Assembly: GCA_051750565.1 (NCBI GenBank)
Contig: JBNJJV010000007.1
Location: forward strand, 98,901 to 162,900
DNA: 64,000 nt
Direction of reading: 5' to 3'
DNA from: Bacillota bacterium
GTDB lineage: Bacteria; Bacillota; Bacilli; Bacillales; Bacillaceae_B
Within the stretch, counting starts at the first letter, position 1; each line of letters starts with the position of its first letter. This document shows, piece after piece, positions 10,360-63,281 of this stretch. A program made the position numbers and the translations under genes. The notes under the pieces are model-generated. The model did no database searches and was not told the origin of the DNA. It saw nothing but the letters and a program-made list of their open reading frames with translations.

Positions 10360-10371
10360 GAGGGACGGACC
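10360..10371 (+). repeat. Single arm of the GAGGGACGGACC element
   Basis: Exact 12-mer 8 nt after the murQ stop. Confidence 0.9.
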
Positions 10372-10450
10372 TTGACTAAACGTCAGGTATCGTCTCTTTA
10401 CTCTTTTTATATCCGATTTGAAAAACATGTTAAAAAAGGTGGAAATTAGT

Positions 10451-11863
10451 ATGATCACTCCTAACATCAAAAAACGGTTCATCGAAATCGTTGGCAAAGA
10501 AAGTTACAGGGATACTCCCGCGGAAAAGCTTGTCTATTCCTATGACGCAACTCCTAATTACCAATCCATGCCTGACGCGGTCATCGTTCCCCGCTCGACA
10601 GAGGAAGTATCAGAAATCGTGAAAATCTGCAACGAGCATGGCATTCCAATCGTCCCAAGAGGATCCGGAACGAATCTCTGCGCAGGCACCTGCCCTACAG
10701 AAGGCGGACTTGTTCTCTTATTCACCCATATGAACAAGATTCTGGAAGTGGACGAAGAGAATCTGACGGTTACCGCCCAGCCTGGTGTGGTGACCCTGGA
10801 TCTCATTCATACAGTTGAAGCAAAGGGTCTCTTCTATCCTCCTGACCCAAGCTCCATGAAAATCTCAACGATCGGTGGAAATATCAATGAGAACTCCGGT
10901 GGATTGAGAGGATTGAAATATGGAGTTACACGGGATTATGTACTGGCTTTAGAAGCTGTGCTCCCTAACGGAGACATCATCCGTACCGGGGGAAAACTCG
11001 CAAAAGACGTTGCTGGCTATGATTTAACCCGCCTTTTCGTTGGATCTGAAGGAACCCTATGCGTCATCACCGAAGCGACATTAAAGCTCGTTCCCATGCC
11101 TGAAACGAAGCAAACGATGCTGGCCCTCTATCAGGATATTGAAGCAGCTGCCCAAAGCGTTTCAAGTATCATCGCCAATCGTATTATTCCGACTACCCTT
11201 GAATTTTTAGATCAGCCTACACTTGAGGTGGTTGAGGATTTTGCCAAAATCGGGTTACCAACCGATGTAAAAGCAGTACTCTTGATCGAACAGGACGGTC
11301 CTCCGGAAGTGGTTGCACGTGATATGAAACGAATGGAAGAAGTGTGTTTACAGAACAACGCCGTATCCGTTCAATTAGCCAAAACGGAGATAGAAGCAGA
11401 TGCCCTTCGTACCGCCCGCCGCTCTGCCCTATCGGCACTGGCCCGTCTCAAACCGACGACGATTTTAGAGGACGCGACGGTTCCACGCTCGGAAATCGCC
11501 AAGATGGTGAAAGCGATCAATGATATTTCCGATCGCTATGAGTTGAAGATTTGTACCTTTGGTCATGCCGGGGACGGAAACCTTCACCCGACGGTTGCGA
11601 CAGATGCCAGGGACCATGATGAAATAGAACGTGTCGAAGCGGCATTCGAAGAAATCTTTGCTCATGCCATTGAATTGGGCGGAACCATCACTGGAGAACA
11701 CGGTGTCGGCATGATGAAAGCCCCTTACCTCGAATGGAAACTGGGACCCGAAGGCATTGCAGCCATGAAAATAATCAAGCAATCATTCGATTCGAACAAC
11801 ATTATGAATCCGAATAAAGTATTCGCTAAAGAATCAAGAAAACGTGTGGTGATTTCAAGATGA
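10451..11863 (+). CDS. glcD: FAD-linked oxidase, glycolate oxidase/D-lactate dehydrogenase subunit GlcD-like
   Basis: MITPNIKKRFIEIVGKESYRDTPAEKLVYSYDATP...VPRGSGTNLCAG. ATG 10451 follows AAAGGTGG. Confidence 0.85.
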   Translation: MITPNIKKRFIEIVGKESYRDTPAEKLVYSYDATPNYQSMPDAVIVPRSTEEVSEIVKICNEHGIPIVPRGSGTNLCAGTCPTEGGLVLLFTHMNKILEVDEENLTVTAQPGVVTLDLIHTVEAKGLFYPPDPSSMKISTIGGNINENSGGLRGLKYGVTRDYVLALEAVLPNGDIIRTGGKLAKDVAGYDLTRLFVGSEGTLCVITEATLKLVPMPETKQTMLALYQDIEAAAQSVSSIIANRIIPTTLEFLDQPTLEVVEDFAKIGLPTDVKAVLLIEQDGPPEVVARDMKRMEEVCLQNNAVSVQLAKTEIEADALRTARRSALSALARLKPTTILEDATVPRSEIAKMVKAINDISDRYELKICTFGHAGDGNLHPTVATDARDHDEIERVEAAFEEIFAHAIELGGTITGEHGVGMMKAPYLEWKLGPEGIAAMKIIKQSFDSNNIMNPNKVFAKESRKRVVISR

Positions 11864-13179
11864 CAACCCTTCTAGAAAAACAAAAGATACAACAGGAATT
11901 TAAAGACCGCATGGATGAAGATGAATTATTGAATTGTATGAGATGCGGTTTCTGTCTCCCTTCCTGCCCTACGTATATTGAGTCAGGATTTAAAGAATCC
12001 CACTCCCCTCGCGGTCGAATTGCCTTAATTAAGGCAGTGGTGGATGGTGTCATAGAACCCGATGAAGAAGTCGAACGAACATTGGATTTGTGCTTAGGCT
12101 GCAGAGCCTGTGAACCCGTTTGTCCTTCCGGTGTGAACTACGGTCACCTATTAGAAGACGCACGCGATATCATCAATCAAAATAAAAAACATTCCCTTCC
12201 TGTACGGGTCCTTCGAAAAACCGTTTTTGAAGGATTATTCCCACACCAGGACAGAATGAGAATGGTCACGAACCTTCTTGGAATCTACCAACGCTCAGGA
12301 TTGCAGAAGGCGGTCCACAGGACGGGTGTGATAAAACTATTACCGGAAAGCATGGCGACAATGGAACGCGTACTTCCTCAAGTTCCAAAGTTGAAAGACA
12401 TGAAGGAACGCCCAACGTCTCTTTCCTCGATTGGTGACGTCCGTAAAAAAGTCGCTTTCTTCTCTGGCTGTTTAATGGATACGATGTTTCTGGAAACAAA
12501 TAATGCCACTACGAAACTATTGCAGTTGGCAGGCTGTGACATTGTGATCCCAAAGATGCAAACCTGCTGCGGAGCCTTACATGGTCATAGCGGTGAAAAA
12601 AATGCAGCGAAGGATTTGGCAAAGCGAAACATCGCTGCTTTTGAAGAATCAGGAGTCGATTACATCATCACCAATGCCGGGGGATGCGGAGCCTTTCTCG
12701 TCGACTATGATCACTTACTGAAGGATGATCCAGATTGGAAAGAACGTGCGGTTCAATTTATAAATAAAATCAAAGACATCTCTTCCATTCTTGTAGAATT
12801 AGAGTTTCATAAAAAGAAATTGAACATTTCCTCTCAACGGATCACGTATCAGGATTCGTGTCACTTGCGAAACGTGCAGCGTACATTTGCGGAACCAAGG
12901 CTCCTCCTTCGATCAGTGGAAGGTGCTGATTACGTCGAGATGAAACAAGCCGATCACTGTTGCGGATCAGCCGGGATCTACAACATCGTCGAATCAGAAA
13001 TGTCCATGAAGATCCTCGATCACAAAATGGACAACGTCGAACAAACCCAAGCAACCACCATCATCACATCAAACCCAGGCTGCCTCCTCCAAATGAAACT
13101 CGGCATCGAACGGGAAGGCCTATCTAACAAAATGCGTGCAATCCACATCGTAGACTTTTTATTGGAAGCAATTCAGTGA
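11860..13179 (+). CDS. glcF: (Fe-S)-binding subunit GlcF-like (2x 4Fe-4S motifs + CCG domains)
   Basis: CMRCGFCLPSCPTY and CLGCRACEPVCPSGV. It overlaps the glcD stop by 4 nt. Confidence 0.85.
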   Translation: MTTLLEKQKIQQEFKDRMDEDELLNCMRCGFCLPSCPTYIESGFKESHSPRGRIALIKAVVDGVIEPDEEVERTLDLCLGCRACEPVCPSGVNYGHLLEDARDIINQNKKHSLPVRVLRKTVFEGLFPHQDRMRMVTNLLGIYQRSGLQKAVHRTGVIKLLPESMATMERVLPQVPKLKDMKERPTSLSSIGDVRKKVAFFSGCLMDTMFLETNNATTKLLQLAGCDIVIPKMQTCCGALHGHSGEKNAAKDLAKRNIAAFEESGVDYIITNAGGCGAFLVDYDHLLKDDPDWKERAVQFINKIKDISSILVELEFHKKKLNISSQRITYQDSCHLRNVQRTFAEPRLLLRSVEGADYVEMKQADHCCGSAGIYNIVESEMSMKILDHKMDNVEQTQATTIITSNPGCLLQMKLGIEREGLSNKMRAIHIVDFLLEAIQ

Positions 13180-13261
13180 GAGGGACGGACCTCTTCATTT
13201 ACTCAAGTCCCGTTAAATCAACGTTTTGGTTTCGGATGGGGTGATTGGAGGTCCGTCCCTC
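13180..13261. repeat. Long-form GAGGGACGGACC hairpin element (also a likely glcF terminator)
   Basis: The arms are at 13180-13191 and 13250-13261. The core contains TTAAATCAACGTTTTGGT, and a T8 run follows. It starts directly after the glcF stop. Confidence 0.85.
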
Positions 13262-13268
13262 CTTTTTT

Positions 13269-13427
13269 TTACTTTTTGATTTTTAAAAATGAAAAGTAGA
13301 CGAGAAAGGAAAGGATGATTCCATAGGCTGCTAGTAGAGTAAGAGAATTAGTGGCGTTTGATGTAAGCCAGATGGACATGGCTGCGATGAGGACTATTGG
13401 TGCGCTTATCCAGATTGTTTTGTTCAT
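13269..13427 (-). CDS. Small (52 aa) 2-TM membrane protein, below the ORF-track cutoff
   Basis: GGAGGT-N6-ATG(13427): MNKTIWISAPIVLIAAMSIWLTSNATNSLTLLAAYGIILSFLVYFSFLKIKK, with stop TAA at 13269-71. Confidence 0.5.
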   Translation of the reverse strand: MNKTIWISAPIVLIAAMSIWLTSNATNSLTLLAAYGIILSFLVYFSFLKIKK

Positions 13428-13528: not shown

Positions 13529-13812
13529 TGTACCTGGTACAATTCAGGTGTTTGGAGCCTGGTACATTCTAAGGGTTTGTAACTGGTTCATTCTCGCTTA
13601 TTCGCATCCTTGCAAATCAACATATTGGGGACTTCCATCGGGATAATAGATAAATCAGCAGCTTAAAATCGTCACTTATTCAGCTGCTGATTTTCCTGGA
13701 ATATTCAACAGGTGAATTTCTTTGATATTTCAACAGGAGAATAAACGCTATTATTCTCCTGTTGAAACTCATCTAATTTTGCCACCTGATTCCCAGCGTT
13801 TTTTCACCTGTT
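13529..13812. repeat. Word-repeat / nested-hairpin non-coding block
   Basis: TGTACCTGGTACA is at 13529. A 12-bp stem pairs AAATCAGCAGCT (13652) with AGCTGCTGATTT (13682). A 14-bp stem pairs 13731-44 with 13751-64. This is nested inside AACAGGTGAA (13707) / TTCACCTGTT (13803). Confidence 0.8.
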
Positions 13813-13870: not shown

Positions 13871-13931
13871 GGTCCGTCCCTCACTCTAACGTTTTGATTA
13901 GGGGCGTGGGGGGGTTGGAGGTCCGTCCCTC
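13871..13931 (-). repeat. Two same-orientation arms (GGTCCGTCCCTC) of the 12-mer element
   Basis: The arms are at 13871-82 and 13920-31, separated by a core containing AACGTTTTGATTA. The second arm ends 3 nt from the bioA stop. Confidence 0.85.
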
Positions 13932-33866: not shown

Positions 33867-33938
33867 GAGGGACGGACCTCCATCAGAACGCAATCCCTGT
33901 TAAATCAAGGTTTGGTCTTTTTGGGAGGTCCGTCCCTC
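33867..33938. repeat. Long-form GAGGGACGGACC hairpin element
   Basis: The arms are at 33867-78 and 33927-38. The core CTGTTAAATCAAGGTTTGGT is homologous to the core of the 13180 copy. The right arm abuts the lutR stop codon. Confidence 0.85.
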
Positions 33939-36877: not shown

Positions 36878-36908
36878 GAGGGACGGACCTTTACAAGGTC
36901 CGTCCCTC
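36878..36908. repeat. Minimal GAGGGACGGACC hairpin (12-bp arms, 7-nt loop); bidirectional terminator position
   Basis: GAGGGACGGACC-tttacaa-GGTCCGTCCCTC lies between convergent genes, 7 and 4 nt from the two stops. Confidence 0.85.
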
Positions 36909-39054: not shown

Positions 39055-39072
39055 GAAAAAATGAGGGACGGA

Positions 39073-39448: not shown

Positions 39449-39490
39449 CGGAGATTCTTAATATGAAGTCTATCGATCAGCTGAATAACG

Positions 39491-39521
39491 GAGGGACGGA
39501 CCTTTTCAAGGTCCGTCCCTC
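39491..39521. repeat. Minimal GAGGGACGGACC hairpin
   Basis: GAGGGACGGACC-ttttcaa-GGTCCGTCCCTC lies 8 nt from the deoR stop. Confidence 0.85.
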
Positions 39522-39529
39522 CTCTTATT

Positions 39530-40306: not shown

Positions 40307-40326
40307 TGAAATTCTCCTTAAATCTC

Positions 40327-41508: not shown

Positions 41509-41570
41509 GAGATCATGGCTCCTTCTCTATAGTTGATATTCTTGAATGGCACTTATCAATTTGAAATCTC

Positions 41571-41675: not shown

Positions 41676-41695
41676 TCTTTCATTCTCCTTTTCTC

Positions 41696-44461: not shown

Positions 44462-44537
44462 ACTTTTTCCTCTCCATTTCTTGAACCTATCCCCCTGTAG
44501 AAGAGGGGTGTCTTCTGCAGGAGGACATAGGGGTCAA

Positions 44538-45605: not shown

Positions 45606-45809
45606 ATTGAACACTCTCCTTTAGATTCTTTGTAATAGTTCAGTAGATTCCTGTAAATTACGGTATCGTTCTTTCATGATAAAAGTTTGATCCTTGCTTT
45701 TGTTTTTGTTGTTTTAATTTGTTTTTGTTTGCTTCACACTTAAAATTTACTTGTTATTTTTTAATCTCAAATAAATACCATATTAATTTATTGTAAATTT
45801 GTTGTTGTT

Positions 45810-46817
45810 TTATATTGTTTTTGGTAGATCTGCCATAATTCGCTTCTTTTTCTCAAACGTGGCAATCTTTCTAACTCCCATACTCTTCAAATCAGACATG
45901 CTCTCATGAACATAAGCTCCTATGTTCTCTGGAAAGTGAGCATCTGATGATAGAGTAAAAGGAACGCCATGCTCTACTAAAATAGATGTGAATGGTTGAC
46001 TAGGACACTTTTCTTTGACCGGAAAGCGGTAGTATAATCCGGAATTCATTTCAGTCGCTACATCATGATCCCTTAAGGCTCTCGCTACTGATTGGTAATG
46101 AGGAATAAGATCCGCTTCATCCGGTCGATGGCCAAAGACCTTCAAATTATCAAGATGTGACATGTATTGAAACAATCCCGTTTTAATCCCTTTCTCAATC
46201 GTCTGATAGAATTGTGAATACAATGTCTTAAGATCATATTGAAGGAATAACCCATTTGCAGACGGGTTATCAAAACCCCAGCCATTAAGGAAGTGCACAG
46301 AGCCGCTGATAAAATCACAGTCAATTGGCTGAATGAAACTAGCCAAATCCTGCTCCCCACCATCAAAATAGTCAGCTTCTATCCCGACTCTTAGCCTGAC
46401 CCCTTTTTCTTCCCATTTCTTCTTCGCTCTTTCAGTTGCGTAAAGAAACTCATCTACTCCCTCTGTCATGACTTGATCTAACCACTTTGTTTGAAGCTTC
46501 CCAAGTTCTGAGGAACCAAGATCGATATGGTGTTCAAAATATCCTCGCATTTCTTTAAATCGATATAAGTGCTCCACAATTCCCACTTCTTTAAGACCTT
46601 TCTCAATGGCCGCTTGTAAATATAGATCCAGCCATTGTTCATCATACGATCCCTTTTGAACCCGATTGAGCATAAGCCTCAATGTATGTTCGAGCCATTC
46701 TTTGGAATGAGTTTGATCATGGACTTGTTTCAGCATTTCATAGGATAGATAGGTCCTTTTCATCCAGTTGAATGAATAAGGACCTTCTTCTAAATGCACA
46801 TGGTAATCGCAATACAA
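45810..46817 (-). CDS. PHP-domain phosphoesterase (HisJ histidinol-phosphatase-like)
   Basis: MYCDYHVHLEEGPYS... and GSVHF.. and SSDAHFPENIG are PHP metal-ligand motifs. Confidence 0.75.
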   Translation of the reverse strand: MYCDYHVHLEEGPYSFNWMKRTYLSYEMLKQVHDQTHSKEWLEHTLRLMLNRVQKGSYDEQWLDLYLQAAIEKGLKEVGIVEHLYRFKEMRGYFEHHIDLGSSELGKLQTKWLDQVMTEGVDEFLYATERAKKKWEEKGVRLRVGIEADYFDGGEQDLASFIQPIDCDFISGSVHFLNGWGFDNPSANGLFLQYDLKTLYSQFYQTIEKGIKTGLFQYMSHLDNLKVFGHRPDEADLIPHYQSVARALRDHDVATEMNSGLYYRFPVKEKCPSQPFTSILVEHGVPFTLSSDAHFPENIGAYVHESMSDLKSMGVRKIATFEKKKRIMADLPKTI

Positions 46818-46936
46818 TGGTTAAACCTCCAGTACGTTTTAGGTAATACTTTTTATTCAATTAACTTCTTTTTCTTGTAGGGATCTATATTCATTAACAC
46901 GCAGCCCTTTCATAATCAAGGCTGATGAACGACCTA

Positions 46937-47689
46937 TTAAGACGTTTTCTTCATACGAATTACATTGTCATCTTCTGATTGTCTTTTATTTCTCTTTTTA
47001 TACACGATCTTTGATAAAGTCACGCTGCATTCATATAGGACCAAAAGCGGCACGATCACCAAGATATCGGATATAAGATCCGGTGGAGTGATGAATATGG
47101 CGATAACCGTCAAGACAAAGTAAGACATCTTTCTCGCTTTGGACAACAGCATGGGATTGATGATCCCTATTGACGTCAGAAACATGACAATGAGTGGGAT
47201 CTCAAATAAAAACCCAAATGGCAATGTCAGATTAATCATGAATTTAAAATATTTTTCTGCCGTGAACATCGTTTCAAATTGTCCATTAGATAAGGTCAAT
47301 AAAAAAGTGAGGACGGTTGGATACACCACAAAGTATCCGAAGCTAAGTCCAGTGATAAATAATGAAAACAATCCCGGTATATACGCTAACGTGGTTTTTC
47401 TTTCTTTATCCGTCAGTCCCGGTTTCACAAACAGCCACGTTTGATGGGCCGCAATCGGAATCGTCAGCGCCATGGCACAAACGCCTGAAATCATGAAATA
47501 CACCCAAAGAATCTCACTTGGCCCCAATACAGCCAATTCCTTATCTAGATCTCGAATAAGCCACTTGTACATGTCCTGAATGAAGATAAAGGAACCAACA
47601 AGAAAAGTAAGAAAAGAGAGTAATGTGAAGATGATACGCTTTCTCAGCTCTCCCAGATGGTTTACAAGTGTTTGCCCTCCAGTACTCAT
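46937..47689 (-). CDS. tatC: Twin-arginine translocase subunit TatC
   Basis: MSTGGQTLVNHLGELRKRIIFTLLSFLTFLVGSFIF...; 6 TM. Confidence 0.88.
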   Translation of the reverse strand: MSTGGQTLVNHLGELRKRIIFTLLSFLTFLVGSFIFIQDMYKWLIRDLDKELAVLGPSEILWVYFMISGVCAMALTIPIAAHQTWLFVKPGLTDKERKTTLAYIPGLFSLFITGLSFGYFVVYPTVLTFLLTLSNGQFETMFTAEKYFKFMINLTLPFGFLFEIPLIVMFLTSIGIINPMLLSKARKMSYFVLTVIAIFITPPDLISDILVIVPLLVLYECSVTLSKIVYKKRNKRQSEDDNVIRMKKTS

Positions 47690-47774
47690 ACAGATACAAC
47701 CTTCTTTCTTATAAAAATAAGAAAGCCAACTCAAGAAAGGTAAAGCTTTCTAACTTGAGTCAGCCTCTAATCAC

Positions 47775-47951
47775 TTACTTGGTACGTTCCTCTTCCTTTT
47801 CATCTGTCATAAGGTCCTTAGCTGAGTTTTTAAACTCTCTTAATGTATGACCAAATGCTCTGCCGATTTCAGGTAACTTGGATGGCCCAAAAATGATCAA
47901 AGCGATGACCAGAATCAGGATCAGACCGGGAACCCCTATATTTTGCAACAT
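47775..47951 (-). CDS. tatA: Twin-arginine translocase subunit TatA/E (58 aa, below the ORF-track cutoff)
   Basis: GGAGGAAAACAT-ATG(47951): [58 protein letters not shown]. Confidence 0.85.
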
Positions 47952-47982
47952 ATGTTTTCCTCCATTTTTACGTATTTGTCTA

Positions 47983-49188
47983 TTATGCTTTTACTTTTTC
48001 TTTTTCATTTAGTGGAAGTGGATCAATGCTCTGATCATTGGCAGTCAAATCAATTCCGTAATCTTTCGCGAATACCATATGAGTATCAACAAGAACTCCC
48101 TCTTTGTTTTCATCTAAATGAAATACTCTTGCTCCACGCAATCTGTTTCGATCTGCCCCTGGTAATCCATAAGTGCCAAACCCTGTATTCCCGGCATACC
48201 CAAGCATGATGCCATAGTAGTTTCCGCAATAGGTGTTGATATGATCATGGCCACAGAAGACACCTTTTACATCTCCTCTATCCAGCATCGCAGTAAATAA
48301 GCCACTATTGATTGGTCCCGGACATTCTGCTTCATTTCTTTCCCCTACAATTCCATGTCTTTTCACTGCAAGTTCGTGGCTTGGGGATGTTCTGCTATCA
48401 ACACTTCCATGCCACATGAAACGGTGTTCCCATAAAGGGATATGAATGAAAACAAGGGACGGTACTTTATACCCGTATTTCTTTTCAATACTTTTTGATT
48501 CTTCATAATACCAATTGACTTGATTAAAACGAAGCCAGTCCCAATGGGGGTATCCATCAAAATTCTGTCCGGCGATTTGTGAAGGAGCATATCTGCCGCT
48601 ATCCAGTAACCAAAGGTTGAATGCTGCTTTATTTCCCTTGGAACGTTTAATAAGGAGATTCATATTTCCGGTTCCCGTCAGACCTTTTTCTCCCGGTTCA
48701 TTCATATTGCATGGATAGTTCATATAGAACTTGAGCATATCCTCTTCATACATCCCGCTTTTCGCTGAAGAGTCTTCATCGTGGTTTCCGAATGTGACAG
48801 CCCACTTAATTTTTCTTTCTTCCATCGGGGATGCTACATTATTCAAGGCTTGTTTCATTTCTAATTCCGTATCACAGCCTCCAGTAATACAATCACCATT
48901 AATCACAACGAAATCTGGTTTCTCTGAATCCAGCACTTTTTCCATGAGCTCAATCGTTCTGCGATCGATACGCTCGTCGTCCTGAGTATCATTAAATTGG
49001 ACAACCTTAAACTTTCCATCGGAGTTAAATTGGAGTTTTGTTGGCTTATGTTTTTTCGCCTCCGCAGTGTTGGTTAGCAAATCCCCCGGTAAACCTGCTG
49101 TAGCAAGCGATAAAGCAATTGTGCTCATTCCACCGATTTTCAAGAAGCTTCTTCTGTCTAACTCTTCGTTCTGATCCTTATGCCTCAT
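47983..49188 (-). CDS. Tat-signal calcineurin-like metallophosphoesterase
   Basis: The signal is [32 protein letters not shown] (RRxFLK). The motifs GDCITGG, GNHD and GHDH are present. Confidence 0.8.
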
Positions 49189-49559
49189 AACACCCTACCT
49201 CCATGATCATTGTTTGTTTTAGTCGGGAGTCTTTCATTCCTCCTGCTCTACTTCTTCATCCTAAGACATAATTATTGAAAGACTATTAAAGACGTTAGGA
49301 GAAAAAGTAAACAAAACACAGAAAACAAATGAAAACAAAATTCCCGTTTAAACGACAAAAACCCCTATTTACTCGACTCCCCTTCGTACTCTAGTAAAAG
49401 AAATAGACAAAAACGCATAAGAAATTGATTTGTTTTCCTTGTTACTTTTGATTAATTTACAAAAGTTAATAATTTCGTAGCATACATTTCATAATCACTT
49501 TTTATAATTGGCTAAAATGTAAGCAATGAAGAAATTGGGGGAAAGGGGAGAAATATCCC

Positions 49560-50330
49560 GTGATGACAGAAAGACAAAAATCAATCGTACGAGAGTTAGA
49601 GATAAAAAATAAGGTCAGCGTGGCAAATTTATCAAAAAAGTTAAAGGTAACCCCAGAAACGATTCGAAAGGATTTAATCCTCCTGGAACAAAAGAAGAAA
49701 TTACGGAGAATTCACGGGGGAGCGATTCCGTACTATGGTTTAATAAAAGAACCTCATTTCAATAAAAAAATTGGAATCTCTCATGATCAAAAAAAGCGAA
49801 TCGGGGAAGTTGCTTCTACATTTATTACTGATGGAGAAACGATCGCTCTGGATGTTGGTTCAACCACCTTGCATATCGCCAGCTCGATAAAGGATGTTCA
49901 AAATGTAACGATTGTGACTAACTCTTTAGCTGCGGCAGACATTCTGAACACACGATTGGAAAACCATCTATTTGATGGAAATGTCATTGTACTGGGTGGA
50001 GCAACGAATCCATTGCAACGTTCAGTAAGCGGCTCGTTAACGAATATATTATTAGAGAATTTTTATTTCGACAAAGCCTTCATATCTTGTGGTGGAATTA
50101 ATAAAGAGGGAATATGTGATTTTAATATTGATGAAGCTGCTGCATCTTCCATAATGATCAAGAAAACAAGGAAAGTGTTTGTTGTTTCGGATTCATCCAA
50201 GTTGAATCAAAATGCTCTGTTTCACATCGGATCATTCTCATCGATTGATTGTGTGATATCGGATGTTTCTATACCTAAAGAATGGATGAAAGATTCAATG
50301 ATTAATAAGGTTGAATGGATAAAAGTTTGA
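49560..50330 (+). CDS. DeoR-family transcriptional regulator
   Basis: MMTERQKSIVRELEIKNKVSVANLSKKLKVTPETIRKDLILLE... plus a DeoR C-terminal domain. Confidence 0.85.
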   Translation: MMTERQKSIVRELEIKNKVSVANLSKKLKVTPETIRKDLILLEQKKKLRRIHGGAIPYYGLIKEPHFNKKIGISHDQKKRIGEVASTFITDGETIALDVGSTTLHIASSIKDVQNVTIVTNSLAAADILNTRLENHLFDGNVIVLGGATNPLQRSVSGSLTNILLENFYFDKAFISCGGINKEGICDFNIDEAAASSIMIKKTRKVFVVSDSSKLNQNALFHIGSFSSIDCVISDVSIPKEWMKDSMINKVEWIKV

Positions 50331-50441
50331 ACCTACAGGACTTCCATACCCAACTCCTGTTGAAGAACCCCTTTTAGAACAACCATTATCATGTGAAATA
50401 TTGGTATCTTTTATTATTCGTATACCTTATCAAGAGCCATA

Positions 50442-50453
50442 GGTCCGTCCCTC
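50442..50453 (-). repeat. Single arm GGTCCGTCCCTC
   Basis: Exact 12-mer with no partner nearby. Confidence 0.9.
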
Positions 50454-50520
50454 AACGCGTTAGTGTATGATAGAATTAATTTAGAGTAATTGATTTTTGT
50501 TTGCTTGGAGGTTGTTTAGG

Positions 50521-52125
50521 ATGCGGCTTTATATGACAGATAAAGTGGAACGTGCGATTGAGTTATTCTCTCAATCAGAGGTGGATGCTCTTGAGGTAGT
50601 GAATCATGAGGAAGAGATTGTAGGAATTCTTACACTAGAAGAATTAGGTACGATTTTTCATGATGGCCATTTAGGTGGTATGGTCGGTGAAATTTTCCAA
50701 AAAAGCATGTCACATCCATCTCCTCTTCAAGAACAAAAACGGAAGAAAAACCAATATAGTGATTTACTAGAGAGTCATGTTTTTAACGATATAATCAATT
50801 CCCTTTATGATGGGGTCTTCATTACAGATGGATATGGTATTACAGTCAAGGTAAACAAATCCTATGAAAGAATAGCGGACCTGAAATCCGAGCAACTAAT
50901 CGGCTATCATATGGAAGAGCTCATTAAGGCTGGATATATATCCAAATCTGCCTCCATCCAGGTCTTGAAAGAAAAAAGACCGATAACATTGATGCAGTCC
51001 ATTCACAACGGAAGAAAAATCATCGTGTCCGGTACACCGATTTTTAATGAGGAAGATGAAATTTTATATGTTGTAAACAGTGTTCGTGATATCACCGAAC
51101 TATTAAAATTAAAGCTACAAATTGATGAGTTGCAAGAACTAAAGAATCTCCGCCAAAGTTCGAATGCCACGTTTTCTAATGAAGCAGAGAAGTCCTCCAT
51201 CTATTCCAGTGAAAGGATGAAGAAGGTTTTCACCACCATTGATCGAGTAGCCAAAACCGATGTAAAAGTTCTCTTACAGGGGGAAACCGGTGTTGGGAAA
51301 ACGATGATTGCAAAATACATACACGAGCATTCGAAACGTTCGACCGGTAGTTTTCTAGAGCTTAACTGCGGAGCCTTCCCTCCAAGTTTAATAGAGGCAG
51401 AATTATTCGGCTATGAATCAGGTTCTTTCACCGGTGCTTTATCTAAAGGGAAAAAAGGATTGCTGGAAGTGGCGGATAATGGCACGTTATTCCTTGATGA
51501 AATTGGGGATCTTCCTTTGGAGCTTCAAGTAAAACTACTAAAGGTCATTGAAGATCAAGCGTTCATCCCCATTGGTTCATCAAAACTCAAACAAATTAAT
51601 GTTCGCATTATCGCTGCTTCCCATAAAAACATTAAGAACTTAGTGGACATAGGGGAATTTCGCGAAGACTTATATTACCGTTTAAACGTCGTTCCAGTTC
51701 AAATCCCTTCCCTCCGTCAGCGTCGCGAAGAAATCATTCCGCTTTCTCAACACTTTTTACAAAGCTTCAATGATGAATATGGATCAAGCAAAGTGATGAG
51801 CATTGAGGCATTGGATTGTTTACATGAATATGATTGGCCTGGGAATATTAGAGAATTAAAAAATTTGATAGAGCGCTTAGTCGTTATCACTCCTTCAGAA
51901 ACAATCGGACGTGAAGATCTACCACCTGAATTAAGTGAAGCCACCAAGAAACCAGGCTCACTTTATGAAGGAGAAATTCTTCCTTTAAAAGAGGCCGTGG
52001 ATCGAGTAGAGAAACAATTGATCACCAATGCAATACGAAAATATAAAACAACGAGAAAAGCAGCAGAAATTCTCGAAGTCAGCCAATCCACGATTGTCCA
52101 AAAAATGAAGAAATGGGAGCTTTGA
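50521..52125 (+). CDS. Sigma-54-dependent transcriptional activator (N-terminal sensor + PAS + AAA+ + Fis HTH)
   Basis: Walker A is GETGVGKT, the GAFTGA-type loop is ESGSFTGA, GTLFLDEIG is present, and the C-terminal HTH is RKAAEILEVSQSTIVQKMKKW. ATG 50521 follows GGAGG. Confidence 0.88.
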   Translation: MRLYMTDKVERAIELFSQSEVDALEVVNHEEEIVGILTLEELGTIFHDGHLGGMVGEIFQKSMSHPSPLQEQKRKKNQYSDLLESHVFNDIINSLYDGVFITDGYGITVKVNKSYERIADLKSEQLIGYHMEELIKAGYISKSASIQVLKEKRPITLMQSIHNGRKIIVSGTPIFNEEDEILYVVNSVRDITELLKLKLQIDELQELKNLRQSSNATFSNEAEKSSIYSSERMKKVFTTIDRVAKTDVKVLLQGETGVGKTMIAKYIHEHSKRSTGSFLELNCGAFPPSLIEAELFGYESGSFTGALSKGKKGLLEVADNGTLFLDEIGDLPLELQVKLLKVIEDQAFIPIGSSKLKQINVRIIAASHKNIKNLVDIGEFREDLYYRLNVVPVQIPSLRQRREEIIPLSQHFLQSFNDEYGSSKVMSIEALDCLHEYDWPGNIRELKNLIERLVVITPSETIGREDLPPELSEATKKPGSLYEGEILPLKEAVDRVEKQLITNAIRKYKTTRKAAEILEVSQSTIVQKMKKWEL

Positions 52126-52155
52126 TTACTTCTTGAATCAAAGCTCCCATTTTTG
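52113..52155 (+). terminator. Terminator of the activator gene
   Basis: ATGGGAGCTTTGATT-acttcttg-AATCAAAGCTCCCAT is followed by T5 and overlaps the stop codon. Confidence 0.8.
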
Positions 52156-52234
52156 ATTATTTTTCTAATCGGATTTGACTATTTTTTGACACCCTCTCAC
52201 GTGTCCCTCCTTCTATTCCCACTTTTCAGAAAGT

Positions 52235-52250
52235 TGGCACAGAACTTGCA
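52235..52250 (+). promoter_or_regulatory. Sigma-54 (-24/-12) promoter TGGCAC-N5-TTGCA
   Basis: TGGCAC (52235-40), agaac, TTGCA (52246-50). This matches the consensus exactly and lies 38 nt upstream of ATG 52288. Confidence 0.85.
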
Positions 52251-52287
52251 TCCTTTTTTATATAAGAATCGAAAGGAGATACTTTTC

Positions 52288-53436
52288 ATGACAATCTCAA
52301 CTTTTAAAATTGCAAATAAATTGGTGACAGGAAAAGGGGCAACAGAAGTTTTACCCGACGAAATCAAGCGCCTTCAAATTCAAAACCCACTAATCGTCAC
52401 AGATGAAATCCTCCAAAAAGTCGGGGTGGTAGATCAAATCATACCCTTTTTGAAAGGGCTTACTTACGGAATATTCACAGGTGTTAAACCTGATCCTGAG
52501 CTTTCTATTGTGGAAGATTGCACGAAAGTATTCATCGAAGGGAATCATGATGGCTTGATTGCTATAGGCGGTGGAAGTGCAATTGATATCGCAAAAAGTG
52601 TGTCTGTATACGCTGGTTTTGATGGCAGCCTGTCAGAACTCATCGGTACAGACCTTGTTCCACAAAAGGGCGCACCTATCATTACACTCCCGACAACTGC
52701 AGGAACAGGTTCAGAAGTAACGAATATATCGATCCTTTCTGACAAAGAAGCTCAGCTCAAAAAAGGAATCGTGAGTGACTATCTGCTTCCTGATGTGGCG
52801 ATTGTCGCACCGGAAATGACGCTGACCATGCCGCCTTCAGTCACAGCAGCAAGCGGTGTGGACGCATTGGTACATGCCATTGAAGCATATATCTCGGTTC
52901 ATGCTTCACCCATAACAGATGCCTTGGCCATTTATTCGATACGAATGATTTCAGAGAACCTGCCAAAAGCATACGCCAATCCTAGCCATGTGGATGCCCG
53001 TGAAAAAATGGCGACTGCAAGCTTAATGGCCGGTATGGCTTTTGGTAATGCTGGAGTCGGTGCCGTTCACGCTCTCGCCTATCCTTTAGGCGGCCGCTAT
53101 CATATTCCTCATGGAGTCAGTAATGCTCTCTTGCTTCCATATGTCATGGAATGGAATAAAATTGCCTGTATGGAGCGCTTCAGGGACATTGCGGCAGCAC
53201 TAGGCGAAAACGTTCGCTCCTTATCGGACGCAGAAGCAGCAGATAAAGCCGTGAATTCCATGAAGCGATTATGCACCGCAGTCAATATCCCGACTGGATT
53301 ACGCTCCTTTGATATCCCGGAAACGGCACTTTCTGATATGGCTGAAGATGCAAGCAAGATTGAAAGACTATTAAACAATAACCCACGTCAGTTAAACAAA
53401 AGTGAAATTGAACAAATCTATCAATCTGCTTATTAA
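52288..53436 (+). CDS. Iron-containing (group III) alcohol dehydrogenase, 4-hydroxybutyrate dehydrogenase-like
   Basis: MTISTFKIANKLVTGKGA...GGGSAIDIAK...TTAGTGSE...H..E...H. ATG 52288 follows AAAGGAG. The ORF-track start 52153 would swallow the sigma-54 promoter. Confidence 0.85.
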   Translation: MTISTFKIANKLVTGKGATEVLPDEIKRLQIQNPLIVTDEILQKVGVVDQIIPFLKGLTYGIFTGVKPDPELSIVEDCTKVFIEGNHDGLIAIGGGSAIDIAKSVSVYAGFDGSLSELIGTDLVPQKGAPIITLPTTAGTGSEVTNISILSDKEAQLKKGIVSDYLLPDVAIVAPEMTLTMPPSVTAASGVDALVHAIEAYISVHASPITDALAIYSIRMISENLPKAYANPSHVDAREKMATASLMAGMAFGNAGVGAVHALAYPLGGRYHIPHGVSNALLLPYVMEWNKIACMERFRDIAAALGENVRSLSDAEAADKAVNSMKRLCTAVNIPTGLRSFDIPETALSDMAEDASKIERLLNNNPRQLNKSEIEQIYQSAY

Positions 53437-53487
53437 TATAAAGGATTTCAGTTCATTGTTATCAAATTAAGAAAAGGGGTATATAGG

Positions 53488-54876
53488 ATGTGGAGAAATC
53501 GAAAAGATGGTGAGGAATCACCATATATTCCAATGGGACCTTTTAAATTAAGACTCCCGTTTATTCACTACAAATTTGAATGGCCGGATTATGTCCAAGG
53601 TTTGCTAATGTGTGCAGTAGATTTAGCTGCGATTCCATTAATGATTGAACTTCTGGGCATGCCTTTTGAAGTCGCATTAGCCGTTGTACTGTTGAATGGA
53701 ATTCTCTATTTAACTCATCACTTACTCGGCGATCCCGTCGTTCCCGGATGGATCACACCAGCGATTCCATTAATCATGGCTTATGTATCAGCATTCCCAG
53801 AAGGACCGGAACGTGTGCATGCACTAGTCGCCTTCCAGCTTACACTCGGCTTACTTTCCATCCTGTTAGGGGTGACAGGATTAGCGAAAAAAGTCGTTAC
53901 ATTCGTTCCCCCGGCGATTAAATCCGGGGTAATCTTAGGAGCAGGATTTGCAGCAATCATTTCTGTCTTCCAGGTTGGTGGACGTTTCGAAAGCTTTCCA
54001 TGGACCATTTCCATAGCGGTAGGGATTGCCTTTTATATTATATTCTCTCAACATTTCAATCAACTGAAAGCCAAAAGTGCACTATGGGGACTTATTGGAA
54101 AACTGGGAATCTTTCCGATTATTATTCTCGCTGTTATCATCGCACCTCTCTTTGGAGAAGCACCTTGGCCAACGATTGAGTGGGGGCTCATTAATCCTGA
54201 CTTCGGTACACTTTGGAGTGAATACACCATCTTTGGGCTCGGTTTCCCTCCGGCAATGCTATTTGTAACGGCCTTGCCTACTGTATTAGCCGCTTATATC
54301 GTCCTATTCGGAGACGTTTTACAAAGTAAAGCGCTTATCGATGAAGCGGACCTTGTGCGCCGTGATGAAAAGATCGATTACAATCCGAATCGTGCCCATA
54401 TGGTCTTCGGTGGACGTAACACCATTATGAGTATACTTGGTCCTGATGTCACAATGGCAGGTCCACTATGGGCAGCCATGCAAGTTGTCGTAATTGAACG
54501 GTTTAAAGAAGGTAAAAAAGCTATGCATTCTATATTTGGAGGTTCCGGATCCTTCAGATGGGGTACAAATACTGGACTCTTACTTCTCCCCATTGTAAGT
54601 TTAGTACAACCGATTCTAGGTATCGCCCTTGCCTTAACTTTGCTGATCCAAGGCTATGTAAGCGTTCGCGTAGGGATATTAGAATCCCGAAGTCACCGTG
54701 ACCTTGGCATTGCCGGAGTTATAGGGGCAGTACTCGCCACCAAAGGTGCTACTTGGGCCTTCGCAGTTGGAATTTTGTTATGCTTATTGATTTACGGTAA
54801 AAAATTCTTCATCGGTGAGAACGATGAAATTTTTACAAAAGATCTAGAAAATAAAGATGCCAAGAAAATCTCATAA
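53488..54876 (+). CDS. Polytopic permease of uncertain family
   Basis: The protein is 462 aa with about 12 hydrophobic segments. It sits in the sigma-54 operon between the ADH and ALDH genes. Confidence 0.7.
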   Translation: MWRNRKDGEESPYIPMGPFKLRLPFIHYKFEWPDYVQGLLMCAVDLAAIPLMIELLGMPFEVALAVVLLNGILYLTHHLLGDPVVPGWITPAIPLIMAYVSAFPEGPERVHALVAFQLTLGLLSILLGVTGLAKKVVTFVPPAIKSGVILGAGFAAIISVFQVGGRFESFPWTISIAVGIAFYIIFSQHFNQLKAKSALWGLIGKLGIFPIIILAVIIAPLFGEAPWPTIEWGLINPDFGTLWSEYTIFGLGFPPAMLFVTALPTVLAAYIVLFGDVLQSKALIDEADLVRRDEKIDYNPNRAHMVFGGRNTIMSILGPDVTMAGPLWAAMQVVVIERFKEGKKAMHSIFGGSGSFRWGTNTGLLLLPIVSLVQPILGIALALTLLIQGYVSVRVGILESRSHRDLGIAGVIGAVLATKGATWAFAVGILLCLLIYGKKFFIGENDEIFTKDLENKDAKKIS

Positions 54877-54897
54877 AACATTACAAGGAGGATCACT

Positions 54898-56516: not shown

Positions 56517-56828
56517 TTGACTGCGCTTTCTTCCTATGCTAGATTGTGTTTAATAATTAAATTCCACGACGAGAAAAAGTACGAGAAGGAACATGTTCTA
56601 AAGAGAGTCGGTGTATGCTGGGAGCCGGTGGACAGATCTTTACCGAAAATCATCTCCGAGATGCAAAGCTGAATTGGAGTAGGCTTTGACGGAATTCCAC
56701 CGTTATCAAGGGACATGTATGATTGTACATAGATAAGGTGCCGGAATGTTTCTTTATAGATCAACTTCCGGAATATGGGTGGTAACGCGAGTCCTAACTC
56801 GTCCCTGATCAGGGGCGGGTTTTTTTAT
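56517..56828 (+). promoter_or_regulatory. T-box leader (promoter TTGACT-17-TAGATT, stem I, T-box, terminator); probable Ile specifier ATC
   Basis: AGAGAG/GCTGGGAG stem-I elements are present. The specifier loop reads AGTA...GAAAATCA, with ATC at 56649-51 followed by A. The T-box is AATATGGGTGGTAACGCG (56772-89). The terminator is at 56797-56822, followed by T7. Confidence 0.8.
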
Positions 56829-56893: not shown

Positions 56894-58213
56894 ATGAGAA
56901 AAAAAGATGTGCTGGTTTCAGGTTTTATGCTTTTTTCTCTATTTTTCGGGGCTGGAAATTTAATATTTCCGCCATATCTTGGAATGGAATCAGGAGCTTA
57001 CTTTGCCGCAGCAATTGCCGGGTTTATTTTAACAGCAGTGTTCCTGCCTTTTTTAACGATCATTTCGGTATCGTTATCTACTAACGGATTATTGTCAATT
57101 GGCCAACGGGTCCATCCTGTCTTTGGACTTGTGTTCGCCATCGTGATTTATATGTCGATTGGAGCACTATACGGTATTCCAAGGGCGTCGAATGTTGCCT
57201 ATGAATTGGGATTTATGCAAGTGATTAGTGTGGATGGACAATTACCCTTGTTCTTATTCTCTCTTGTCTTTTTCGGATTAACCTACTTGCTCAGTATCAA
57301 TCCCAAAAAAGTGATTGATCTTGTCGGGCAGTTTTTAACGCCTGCCTTGCTCATTGTATTAGCGATACTCTGTGTACGGGCCTTTATGATCTTTGATTAT
57401 ACGGACGCTCAAGCAACTGAAAATTTCCAGTCCGATCCGTTTCTCAAAGGGTTTCTGGAAGGGTACTTCACCATGGATGCCGTGGCAGCCCTTGCCTTTG
57501 GGATTGTTATCATCAATGGATTGAAAGATAAAGGAGCGACGGATAAAAGGGAGCTGATAAGAGGGACAATCAGTTCAGGTATGATTGCAGTAGTCGGCTT
57601 AATCATGGTGTATCTTTCACTCGGATGGATCGGACGGGTTGTTCCGCATGAAGAGCCACTTCAAAATGGAGCAGAAATATTGGTTCTTGCTTCTCATCAA
57701 TTATTTGGATACAGCGGGAATGTGTTATTTGGAGCCATAGTGATGATTGCTTGTTTAACGACCTGTATCGGCCTCATCAATGCTTGCGGACGTTTTTTCA
57801 ATGAAAATTTCCCCAGGTATTCATATAACACTTATGTAATGATTTTCATCCTCATCGGGTTGGCCGTGACCAATCTTGGCCTGAATTTGATATTGAAGGT
57901 GGCTACACCGTTACTCGTTCTAATTTATCCTGTAGCTATTGTGCTCGTAGTCCTCTCTCTCTTCCAGCATTTCTTTGGGGAAAGTAAGAGAATGTATGTG
58001 TATGGAGTAGGGGTCGCAACATTATTTGCCTTTTACGAAATGCTGATGACGCTAAAAATTCAGATGGGTGGAATTCAATCTATCTTGGCATTCCTTCCCC
58101 TCAGTGAAAACGGCCTGGCCTGGACCCTTCCTACCCTCTTGGTAGTCGTGATTGGGTATGCCATAGACCTGGCCCAAAGGAAAATCACCTTTCCTTCAAA
58201 GTTTAACTCTTAA
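56894..58213 (+). CDS. brnQ: Branched-chain amino acid transport system II carrier
   Basis: MRKKDVLVSGFMLFSLFFGAGNLIFPPYLGMESG... Confidence 0.9.
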   Translation: MRKKDVLVSGFMLFSLFFGAGNLIFPPYLGMESGAYFAAAIAGFILTAVFLPFLTIISVSLSTNGLLSIGQRVHPVFGLVFAIVIYMSIGALYGIPRASNVAYELGFMQVISVDGQLPLFLFSLVFFGLTYLLSINPKKVIDLVGQFLTPALLIVLAILCVRAFMIFDYTDAQATENFQSDPFLKGFLEGYFTMDAVAALAFGIVIINGLKDKGATDKRELIRGTISSGMIAVVGLIMVYLSLGWIGRVVPHEEPLQNGAEILVLASHQLFGYSGNVLFGAIVMIACLTTCIGLINACGRFFNENFPRYSYNTYVMIFILIGLAVTNLGLNLILKVATPLLVLIYPVAIVLVVLSLFQHFFGESKRMYVYGVGVATLFAFYEMLMTLKIQMGGIQSILAFLPLSENGLAWTLPTLLVVVIGYAIDLAQRKITFPSKFNS

Positions 58214-58221: not shown

Positions 58222-58233
58222 GAGGGACGGACC
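58222..58233 (+). repeat. Single arm GAGGGACGGACC followed by a conventional terminator hairpin
   Basis: It lies 8 nt after the brnQ stop. AGCAACAAGG...CCTTGCTGCT followed by T6 sits at about 58243-58290. Confidence 0.85.
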
Positions 58234-58906: not shown

Positions 58907-59310
58907 TTAGTAGCTATGTGAGTAAATCTCAAAAATATTCCCGAACGGATTTTTTACACCATACGGTAAGGCTTTTCCCCGGGATAATACTCACGGATCG
59001 GCATGCGCTGTTTACCGCCGTGCTGTTTGATTTTTTCAACCACGCCTTCTACATCAGGGTTCTGGATACAGAAATGGAATAGTCCTGTTTTCCAATACTC
59101 GAAGTTATTCTCCGGCTTTTCGTTGTGAGGAAACTCAAACAGCTCCACTCCGATTTTATCACCGTTGCCAGGTGAGCAATTCTGAATTTCTCCCCATCAT
59201 TCCCGAATACATCACCGACATCTGCACGAAACCCGAAGAAGCCAATACATTTTACACAGAGGTGTTCGGATGGTACACCATCATGGAGCCTTCCGATGTG
59301 GATCCTTTCT
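58907..59310 (-). pseudogene. VOC/glyoxalase-family gene remnants (two frameshifts; N-terminal piece readable on the opposite strand)
   Basis: The minus strand reads ..GNDGEKFRIAHLAT / GDKIGVELFEFPHNEKPENNFEYWKTGLFHFCIQNPDVEGVVEKIKQHGGKQRMPIREYYPGEKPY / YGVKNPFGNIFEIYSHSY*. The plus strand (59172-59300) reads ..PEYITDICTKPEEANTFYTEVFGWYTIMEPSDV. Confidence 0.5.
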
Positions 59311-59955: not shown

Positions 59956-60153
59956 CTAATCTAAAGAAAACTTGTGTGGTGGTAGTGGTAATGCAGAACT
60001 CACTATGAACGAATCCATGACCATCGTCATTTTGGACCTGGTTATTGCCGGCAGGCTCTTAACTTCATCACTGATGACACGACCCAGATCCTTTGTATTT
60101 CTACTCCGTATTTTCAAAAGATAATCATCCTCCCCGGCGAAATGTGTACATCC
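59956..60153 (-). pseudogene. Lrp/AsnC-family regulator, C-terminal (RAM) domain only
   Basis: It has no start codon: ..GCTHFAGEDDYLLKIRSRNTKDLGRVISDEVKSLPAITRSKMTMVMDSFIVSSALPLP..*. The stop lies 11 nt before the lysE ATG. The HTH half is missing. Confidence 0.65.
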
Positions 60154-60207
60154 ATGTGATTACCCCATTTCATTAAATTATAATATTATAAATTGTTTTT
60201 TGTAGAA

Positions 60208-60219
60208 GAGGGACGGACC
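60208..60219 (+). repeat. Single arm GAGGGACGGACC
   Basis: Exact 12-mer about 55 bp beyond the break in the lrp fragment. Confidence 0.9.
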
Positions 60220-60393
60220 TTCAATTGGTTTCCCCTTTAAAACCTTGGTCAGGCTATAAAGTAATTCATTTAATATATGCGGAGTTTCTAATCCTTTATG
60301 TACTTTTTCCGAGAAACCATATAAAAGATCTTTGCTTCATTCTTCGATTCAATTTATCCTTAAAGTAAGTGAACAAGGATTGGAGGAAGATCG

Positions 60394-60750: not shown

Positions 60751-60816
60751 GAGGGACGGACCTCTAAAATCAGCAGAAAACCATTAGGTTAATCACTTAT
60801 TGGAGGTCCGTCCCTC
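60751..60816. repeat. Long-form GAGGGACGGACC hairpin element (sub-family with AACCATNAGGTTAATC core)
   Basis: The arms are at 60751-62 and 60805-16. It starts directly after the DUF488 stop and ends 5 nt from the tauE stop. Confidence 0.85.
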
Positions 60817-60821
60817 TTAAA

Positions 60822-62572: not shown

Positions 62573-63158
62573 CCTGATGCTCAGAGACCTCCCTTCTATC
62601 TTTTGAATCGCGAAGCCACATAATAAGATCATCATGTGGAAAATGAATCCTTGTACCAGAGATAAGCTTTGGAAGAAAACTACCAAGGCTATCAACTAAT
62701 ATTTGCAATTCCTCCAGCACATACCCGTTCTCAAACTCCTCCATGGAAACGGGTAGCTCCTCCTCATCCAGAACGGAAGCTTTTCCATCGGCAAATACGA
62801 GGACATCTATGATGAGATCTTCGAAAGACACTACTTCATTGTTTATGTTAGTATTTCTGACAATATTAAAATAGGACCCTAAATACTCACCCCTATGACC
62901 TCTCCAAATATACACATTATAAGCACGATCCTTCCAATAGTACGCCAGGGTGTAGCTTCCCTCAGGGATGGTTAAGCTTGATTGGTTTGTTGTCATGGTA
63001 AAGGCATCTTCTATTTTATGAAAAAGGACCACATCTTCAACTCCCGCCTTCAAAAGCCGGCAGTGATGTTCCACCACTCTTCCGTCATAACCTATCTTTC
63101 TCTCTATAATCGGGTCACCAACCTGAAGGGGACTCCCCATCGCATTCTCATTCACCAA
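62562..63158 (-). CDS. DUF402 (FomD/Ntdp-like nucleotide phosphatase family) protein
   Basis: ...YTLAYYWKDRAYNVYIWRGHRGEYLGSYFNIV...EDLIIDVLVFADGKASVLDEEEL... The start is TTG/GTG at 63158/63155 after AGGAGGGA. Confidence 0.65.
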   Translation of the reverse strand: MVNENAMGSPLQVGDPIIERKIGYDGRVVEHHCRLLKAGVEDVVLFHKIEDAFTMTTNQSSLTIPEGSYTLAYYWKDRAYNVYIWRGHRGEYLGSYFNIVRNTNINNEVVSFEDLIIDVLVFADGKASVLDEEELPVSMEEFENGYVLEELQILVDSLGSFLPKLISGTRIHFPHDDLIMWLRDSKDRREVSEHQDET

Positions 63159-63218
63159 TCATCCCTCCTAAACTCTAATTACTTGCTATATAAGTTTATC
63201 ATTTCAGCAAATTTGGAA

Positions 63219-63281
63219 GAGGGACGGACCTTTGAGGAGCAAGAACCATCAGGTTAATCGCTCATCAAAGGTCCGTCCCTC
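63219..63281. repeat. Long-form GAGGGACGGACC hairpin element (same sub-family and orientation as 60751)
   Basis: The arms are at 63219-30 and 63270-81. The core contains AACCATCAGGTTAATCGCTCAT. Confidence 0.85.

Follow-up and report, generated by a model that had tools for sequence, protein, structure and literature searches.

A non-palindromic word of 12-13 nucleotides is heavily over-represented in a small clade of Bacillaceae that includes several species of Rossellomorea, and it is kept letter-perfect, in every context in which it occurs, by a force that reads the DNA sequence itself. This word, GAGGGACGGACC in its 12-nt form, was analyzed in a stretch of 64,000 nucleotides from the Bacillota bacterium assembly GCA_051750565.1 (contig JBNJJV010000007.1, positions 98,901 to 162,900), hereafter the window, and in stretches of related genomes, which carry L numbers below. 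Many copies are arms of hairpins next to stop codons, as the original prediction for the window had noted, and these hairpins are very stable; that prediction had described them as a mobile family resembling repetitive extragenic palindromes (REPs) or miniature inverted-repeat transposable elements (MITEs). We favor, with a confidence somewhat short of even, the reading that the word resembles the DNA uptake sequences (DUS) of Neisseriaceae and the uptake signal sequences (USS) of Pasteurellaceae and that a sequence-specific DNA-handling bias, most probably one that acts on uptake in transformation, would maintain it.

The window contains 18 exact copies of GAGGGACGGACC, distributed over both strands, and the enrichment is far above chance (0.00 copies expected from 100 shuffles); all 18 lie at exactly the sites that had been predicted, together with a copy at 39063 that matches at 10 of 12 bases. 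The word is by far the most frequent 12-mer of the window (18 occurrences vs 4 for the next unrelated word), and its density is approximately one copy per 3.5 kb. Copies with one mismatch are absent, and those with two mismatches number three, including that at 39063, where 2.5 are expected; therefore, the distribution in the window is all-or-none. Every one of the 18 copies extends by T to GAGGGACGGACCT, and the preceding base is A in 12 of them. Among the distinct perfect copies of the clade, position 13 is T in 196 of 196, position 14 is a pyrimidine in 94%, and position -1 is never C. Because the one-mismatch variants cluster at position 1 (22 of 35), the hard core of the word is AGGGACGGACCT (positions 2-13), and the full word is (G)AGGGACGGACCT(Y), without self-complementarity in the 12-mer.

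Occurrence of the word and constraint on its sequence

A total of 185,579 species genomes were scanned with AGAGGGACGGACCT, and the counts refer to the matches listed (at least 111 stretches). Among these listed matches, 65 stretches came from approximately 20 assemblies of one small clade, which comprises Rossellomorea vietnamensis, R. aquimaris, R. arthrocnemi, many Rossellomorea sp., several 'Bacillus sp.', a Bacillaceae metagenome-assembled genome (MAG) and CP033051 'Bac144'; the other listed matches were single and occurred in unrelated phyla, as chance predicts. The word had been considered specific to one genome, but it is common to the whole clade, including a lineage of lower GC content. 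The window is approximately 90% identical in nucleotide sequence to loci of R. aquimaris, and an unrelated 21-kb locus holds five copies. A scan of viral contigs returned 24 single matches and no locus with a second copy, which is the chance level and provides no link to phages. Isolated perfect inverted pairs of the 12-mer were also observed in two unrelated high-GC genomes, a Lachnospiraceae MAG (L028) and a Microthrixaceae MAG (L060), and are taken as chance matches within ordinary GC-rich hairpins. The literature searched, in full text, contained neither a repeat family of Rossellomorea nor the sequence of the word.

In certain lineages, the word is absent or decayed. No perfect copies occur in the available sequence of a genuine R. 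marisflavi (L117; 51% GC, 21 kb) or of L144 (50% GC, 13.6 kb). At the orthologous thrB terminator, the word-bearing lineages hold both arms exactly, whereas L117 and L144 retain only the hairpin, whose arms have drifted with compensatory changes. In B. seohaeanensis (L118), both arms of this terminator carry the variant GAGGGACGTACC, and the core GGGACGGACC is found at another site; in 'Bac144' (L119), one arm is exact and the other has a single mismatch at position 1. The record of the latter, CP033051.1 'Rossellomorea marisflavi Bac144' (L009, L016, L071, L090 and L119), is probably misnamed, as judged from a GC content of 35-41% in these stretches and a Hom protein only 77% identical to that of R. 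aquimaris, compared with 51% and 87% in the genuine R. marisflavi assembly. This record carries the same 13-mer, mostly as single copies.

In 584 kb of clade sequence, 164 perfect, 25 one-mismatch and 33 two-mismatch copies were counted (approximately 22 with two mismatches are expected by chance). They are arranged as 53 '+-' inverted pairs (GAGGG...n...CCCTC), 11 '-+' pairs, 10 tandem pairs and 55 singles, and the two strands are used equally (101+/97-). The spacers between the arms of '+-' pairs range from 5 to 127 nt, and six of the 11 '-+' pairs have 5-7 nt between their arms. Singles are found beside ordinary terminators (58222 in the window, L036, L053), in the loops of ordinary terminators (L090:443, L071:4198) and inside long open reading frames (ORFs). 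The architecture described earlier for the window was recovered in the same form, with six inverted pairs, two of them minimal (36878-36908 and 39491-39521) and the long forms with 39-58 nt between the arms, and with a tandem pair in the same orientation at 13871/13920.

The sequence between the arms follows a different rule from the arms themselves. The interiors of 38 long forms were compared by clustering and are mutually unrelated, with the exception of orthologs and two paralogous pairs (60751/63219 and L022/L074). At orthologous sites, the length and the sequence of the interior change while the arms remain exact; in the spacer between the DUF488 and TauE genes (60751), for example, the arms are conserved in L112, L113 and L115, and the interior varies from 28 to 48 nt. 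The interiors are nevertheless self-complementary, and the stem continues beyond the word by a mean of 2.5-3 Watson-Crick pairs of variable sequence, compared with 0.33 by chance. Compensatory changes are observed in orthologous hairpins (L023:5800, L035:5741, L069:5887 and L048:7793) as well as in the thrB terminator. Therefore, structure is selected in the middle of these elements and sequence is selected at their base. Folding energies of the inverted pairs of the window, which lie close to stop codons, are -26 to -46 kcal/mol, and a role in terminating or stabilizing transcripts is plausible. Tails of A or T are enriched, yet a tail with 5 or more such bases out of 8 is present in no more than about half of the '+-' pairs.

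Perfect copies also occur inside genes. We considered as coding sequences (CDS) those ORFs that Pfam matched over the full domain length, and the hosts identified in this manner were Homoserine_dh, MFS_1, Sigma54_activat, YqcI_YcgG, DUF445, SelA, FMN_dh, a YhcN/YlaJ lipoprotein and LeuC. The CDS copies are present in both orientations and in all six frames (EGRT, RGTDL, RDGP, RSVP, GPSL and VRPS). Sense copies are about as numerous as antisense copies, and a motif acting at the RNA level is thereby ruled out. Independently of the sampling, approximately six CDS copies occur in 605 kb, compared with 0.03 expected from base composition; these six comprise three or four copies in tiles and two in a locus fetched by protein.

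The genes Hom and LeuC have the same length as their homologs without the word, and their codons or residues are altered only in the word-bearing lineages; therefore, the copies arose by substitution and not by insertion. In Hom, the peptide EGRT is encoded by GAG GGA CGG ACC in six word-bearing genomes (L030, L110, L116 and L145-147), and the same peptide is encoded by other codons in L118 (GAA GGA CGT ACA) and L144 (GAG GGC AGG ACC), both of which contain few or no copies of the word. In LeuC, the word bearers encode SRSVPH, whereas R. marisflavi (L117) encodes TARIPD and L144 encodes SSNVPH.

Constraint on the letters was observed within and outside genes. In a comparison of L116 with L145, which were fetched by protein identity without ascertainment for the motif, synonymous variation affected 0 of 8 motif codons vs 65 of 135 flanking codons (p=0.0066). 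A comparison of four lineages, two of which were ascertained through the motif, gave 0 of 8 vs 45 of 64 (p=0.0002). In addition, the lone arm that follows brnQ (58222) is identical in six genomes, although the flanks in L114 and L115 are unalignable, and in five of these genomes BrnQ ends in residues that the arm encodes.

The positions of the copies are stable as well. Orthologous DNA was obtained for the elements at 36878, 39063, 58222, 60208, 60751 and 63219 by way of homologs (an exact-protein look-up of a window protein gave no record), and every element occupied the orthologous position in relatives whose nucleotide identity is 73-92%. No polymorphism between filled and empty sites was seen among these relatives, and no target-site duplications were visible at the elements of the window. 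Conservation at orthologous positions, which the original prediction had itself named as contrary to mobility, thus applies to all six elements that could be compared.

Explanations for the word

The enrichment, the use of both strands, the copies in CDS and the '+-' pairs in terminators are the combination that is found in known uptake sequences, which number from hundreds to thousands per genome, and this combination leads us to the DUS/USS-like reading. According to this reading, a protein that handles DNA in a sequence-specific manner would recognize the word, most probably when DNA is taken up or in transformation, and its preference would act as a molecular drive that makes and keeps copies by point substitution and recombination. 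Inverted pairs may then have been co-opted directly after stop codons as stems of terminators, often bidirectional, or of protectors of the 3' end, in which the inner stem and the loop would vary freely provided that pairing persists. Words of this type are a known kind; the phylum would be new, and the receptor would presumably be different. We assign a lower, tentative confidence to the possibility that a Gram-positive lineage has here its first DNA uptake sequence, or another self-DNA 'watermark' by which horizontal transfer and recombination are biased.

Several points weigh against this reading. Neither Bacillus subtilis nor Streptococcus pneumoniae selects DNA by its sequence during uptake, and to our knowledge uptake sequences are documented only in two Gram-negative families (Neisseriaceae and Pasteurellaceae). 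The literature searched reports no uptake sequences in Firmicutes, and it contains neither uptake or transformation data nor competence studies for Rossellomorea. Unlike the hosts of DUS, Rossellomorea is a Gram-positive member of Bacillaceae with no outer membrane and no known ComP-type pilin. The word, at 12-13 nt, is longer than known uptake sequences, and a very high share of its copies lies in hairpins. The few paralogous whole hairpins (60751/63219 and L022/L074) point to some copying of entire hairpins, and the coincidence of arms with the breakpoints of deletions and rearrangements would also fit an enzyme that cuts hairpins. The number of approximately 1,000 copies per genome is an extrapolation from approximately 85 kb of unbiased sequence. 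Only about 5-10% of the copies lie in CDS, compared with 34-65% of known uptake sequences, which alter the encoded peptides (PMC2817400). Finally, the failure of tblastn to match a Y1 transposase with approximate queries (IS200/IS608 TnpA) is a weak negative, and its scope was 712 kb of clade sequence around the elements.

Such a transposase would be expected if the hairpins were REP doublets forming hairpins (REPINs), that is, non-autonomous elements copied by a single-copy domesticated Y1 transposase (REP-associated tyrosine transposase, RAYT), vertically inherited and long-lived, with the lone arms as decayed remnants. REPINs are reported to be vertically inherited and persistent, and most copies of the word are indeed extragenic palindromes near gene ends that are conserved at orthologous sites. 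The paralogy of a few whole hairpins, the breakpoints at or near arms, and the decay of the arms in L117 and L144, which is expected once a cognate enzyme has been lost, are also in agreement with this explanation. However, REPINs are strictly extragenic, and the word has perfect copies in verified CDS in six frames; because these copies are substitutions, a transposing extragenic hairpin cannot produce them. The lone arms are as invariant as the paired arms, which is the opposite of decaying remnants. Moreover, there is no fixed doublet, given the range of spacers, both inverted arrangements and the tandems; the unit itself is not palindromic, the interiors are unrelated between loci, and insertion polymorphism is absent among genomes at 73-92% identity. 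We therefore regard a REPIN origin as unlikely.

We consider similarly improbable the explanation that a clade-specific chromosomal protein (for example, a nucleoid-organizing, segregation or repair factor) binds the word, or that the word is a recombination signal; ordinary selection would then retain it without any role in DNA uptake, and terminators would reuse it. A constraint at the DNA level that is independent of context and strand would be expected of such a site, and the occurrence of the word throughout the clade, with loss in some lineages, is also compatible with it. However, selection per site would be extremely weak over approximately 1,000 sites, and the placement of inverted pairs at gene ends would be unexplained. 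Known words of chromosome architecture are shorter and strand-skewed; Chi and KOPS/SRS, for example, have 5-8 nt and a strong skew. A word of the Chi/KOPS type is ruled out by the length of 12-13 nt and by the absence of co-orientation with replication, as the singles show no leading- or lagging-strand bias when compared with local GC skew (34:28, p=0.53).

The explanation in which the 12-mers are the terminal inverted repeats of a MITE spread recently by a transposase encoded elsewhere is very improbable and is already contradicted by the observations. In its favor, inverted terminal 12-13-mers flank cores of 39-58 nt, two cores of the window are related (60751/63219), and two others share a short stretch, which was confirmed at 81% over 26 nt (13180/33867). 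However, most of the 38 interiors are unrelated, and their lengths shift at orthologous sites while the arms are fixed. Target-site duplications and empty sites were not found, all comparable sites being occupied in the relatives, and the minimal forms have no core at all. Singles, tandems, '-+' pairs and CDS copies that were born by substitution are further contrary to any mobile family of this type. Integron attC sites were rejected on inspection, since the flanking genes are housekeeping genes that do not share one orientation, the window contains no integrase and copies occur inside genes.

Loci of the window and their rearrangements

The distances of 0-8 nt from arm to stop codon that had been reported for the window match the ORF coordinates, and the gene identities proved broadly right; Pfam supports a SIS/MurQ-like gene, a GlcD/GlcF-like pair, a class-III aminotransferase, a GntR/FCD regulator, DeoR regulators and a sigma-54 activator as neighbors. 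The first element (10360..10398, + strand) consists of a perfect arm at 10360-10371 and a degenerate partner, lies 8 nt after the stop codon of the SIS-domain (murQ-like) gene, is followed by TCTTTTTATA and folds at -18.8 kcal/mol. The long-form pair at 13180..13261, with 58 nt between its arms, begins 0 nt after the stop codon of the glcF-like gene and is followed by a T8 tail (-43.6 kcal/mol). Convergent with the glcF-like gene is a 52-codon ORF (13269-13427, minus strand) that encodes a hydrophobic peptide and has a strong ribosome-binding site, and the hairpin is predicted from the sequence to serve both genes as a bidirectional terminator. Two arms of the same orientation, 37 nt apart, are located at 13871..13931 (minus strand) and end 3 nt before the stop codon of the class-III aminotransferase (bioA-like) gene. 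The long-form pair at 33867..33938, with 48 nt between its arms, lies 0 nt from the stop codon of the GntR/FCD regulator gene (33939-34658, minus strand) and has a T-rich tail on the minus strand (-39 to -42 kcal/mol).

The minimal hairpin at 36878..36908 (-26.4 kcal/mol) separates two convergent genes, the ArsR-type gene at a distance of 7 nt and the gene 36913-37281 at 4 nt; L018, L113 and L114 retain this hairpin at the orthologous position with another loop. The second minimal hairpin, at 39491..39521, lies 8 nt from the stop codon of the DeoR gene 39530-40306 (minus strand). A partnerless single arm at 50442..50453 (minus strand) is intergenic, 43 nt upstream of the sigma-54 activator gene. 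The single arm at 58222..58233 (+ strand) stands 8 nt after the brnQ stop codon and is followed by an ordinary terminator hairpin. Upstream of brnQ (56894-58213), a branched-chain amino acid carrier gene, a T-box leader was identified at 56557-56809 (Rfam RF00230, 124 bits); it was the sole match of Rfam 15 in the window, which returned no family for the hairpins, and no tRNAs were found in the window. The long-form pair at 60751..60816 is flanked by two convergent genes, DUF488 at 0 nt and TauE at 5 nt, and that at 63219..63281, downstream of yjdM, is conserved in L112 and L113, folds at -44 to -46 kcal/mol and has an interior paralogous to that at 60751 (83%).

Involvement of the word in rearrangements had been suggested from lone arms beside truncated genes. 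Both of these cases, at 39063 and 60208, were confirmed. The seemingly lone arms at 10360 and 60208 each have a degenerate partner at hairpin spacing. As an association, the suggestion holds, with three breakpoints located at or beside arms. The first is at 39063..39072 (+ strand), where all that is left of a full hairpin, still intact in L113 (7108/7126), is a truncated left arm (GAGGGACGGA). Through the microhomology AATGAGG..GA, this arm adjoins a partial copy of the sigma-54 activator gene (50497-52125); this copy, 39067-39439, is 373 bp long, is 93-94% identical to the PAS-domain part at 51055-51428 and sits between the truncated arm and the hairpin at 39491. The second is at 60208..60238 (+ strand), an element that L112 and L113 also have; its one perfect arm, separated by 7 nt from a decayed partner, is found 3 nt from the break of an AsnC/Lrp C-terminal fragment (59959-60204, minus strand; residues 76-156, 56% identity), the intact gene of which is present in L115 (14241-14711). 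The third is at 59234-59307, where a deletion stops 7 nt past an arm; hxlR and the hairpin that follows it, both present in L112 (12408-13005), are missing from the window, and the junction has a 69-bp inverted piece.

Gene content also varies between hairpins. In the order ArsR, hairpin, amine oxidase, hairpin, a group of genes (121-aa, helix-turn-helix and DUF4003), hairpin and ADH, the modules bounded by hairpins are present or absent depending on the strain. A segment of approximately 15.8 kb (39070-54880), with the hairpin 39491 at its left edge, is absent from the relatives, and four related genomes have a single ADH gene in its place. It carries DeoR regulators, the sigma-54 activator, and transport and metabolic genes, and has just two loci of the word. 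Under the DUS/USS-like reading, long perfect palindromes may act secondarily as fragile sites for deletions.

Two other repeats were observed in the window. Adjacent tandem arrays at 929-1032 and 1071-1167 have a 41-nt period (2.4-2.5 copies, 82-83% matches) and are rich in TTTGAAAATAA and AAAGTCGATAA. A second dispersed repeat, TTCAGCTGCTGATTT, is found at 13652, 13679 and 16712, and with two mismatches at 17637 (4 found vs 0.3 expected), and its copies partly form an inverted pair around 13652-13693.

Meaning and comparison with known systems

Gram-positive transformation is the textbook case of non-selective uptake, and a clade with the genomic signature of an uptake sequence would represent a testable independent evolution of self-DNA recognition. 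If the favored reading is true, a sequence-specific DNA receptor would exist in the competence machinery of Bacillaceae, and transformation in marine Rossellomorea would be self-preferential. Even without uptake, some sequence-specific process as yet undescribed must account for a 13-mer that does not change at synonymous sites or within unalignable intergenic DNA. The word further explains why many terminators have one stem in common, it marks hotspots of change in gene content, and in practice it tells native from foreign DNA in these genomes.

HIP1 (GCGATCGC) of cyanobacteria is likewise an over-represented word, conserved as a DNA sequence in coding and noncoding regions, and its function is disputed. 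Unlike the word of Rossellomorea, HIP1 is an 8-bp palindrome that is spread evenly through genes and is not concentrated in terminator hairpins. The REP/REPIN-RAYT systems of Enterobacteria and Pseudomonas are similar in that abundant extragenic palindromes lie near gene ends, are inherited vertically in stable positions and are specific to groups of species. However, the Rossellomorea unit is not a palindrome, varies in spacing and orientation, occurs in genes and has lone copies that are undecayed.

The USS of Pasteurellaceae (AAGTGCGGT core) also have copies in genes that use several frames and change peptides, and their inverted pairs in terminators include both '+-' and '-+' forms. Most USS copies are intragenic (49-65%), and their extended motif is long and AT-rich, whereas the word of Rossellomorea is mostly intergenic and is extended only by an A at the flank and, after the word, by T and a pyrimidine. 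Among the inverted pairs of uptake sequences, the '+-' and '-+' forms number 226:5 in N. meningitidis and 52:23 in a Haemophilus strain of Pasteurellaceae, and the excess of 53:11 in the clade matches these known uptake sequences (PMC1852404).

The word has many features in common with the DUS of Neisseriaceae (the 10-12-mer AT-GCCGTCTGAA and its dialects), although it is longer (12-13 nt) and less frequent in genes (approximately 5-10% vs 34.5%). Both are short, non-palindromic words with approximately 1,000 copies (extrapolated in our case) that are equally divided between the strands, and both are common to related species with small variants, or 'dialects'. Few or no copies occur in foreign DNA, as in the chance-level single matches of the viral contigs. 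In both systems, many inverted pairs form the stems of terminators, with a strong '+-' bias and A/T-rich outer flanks, and other copies are single or lie in genes.

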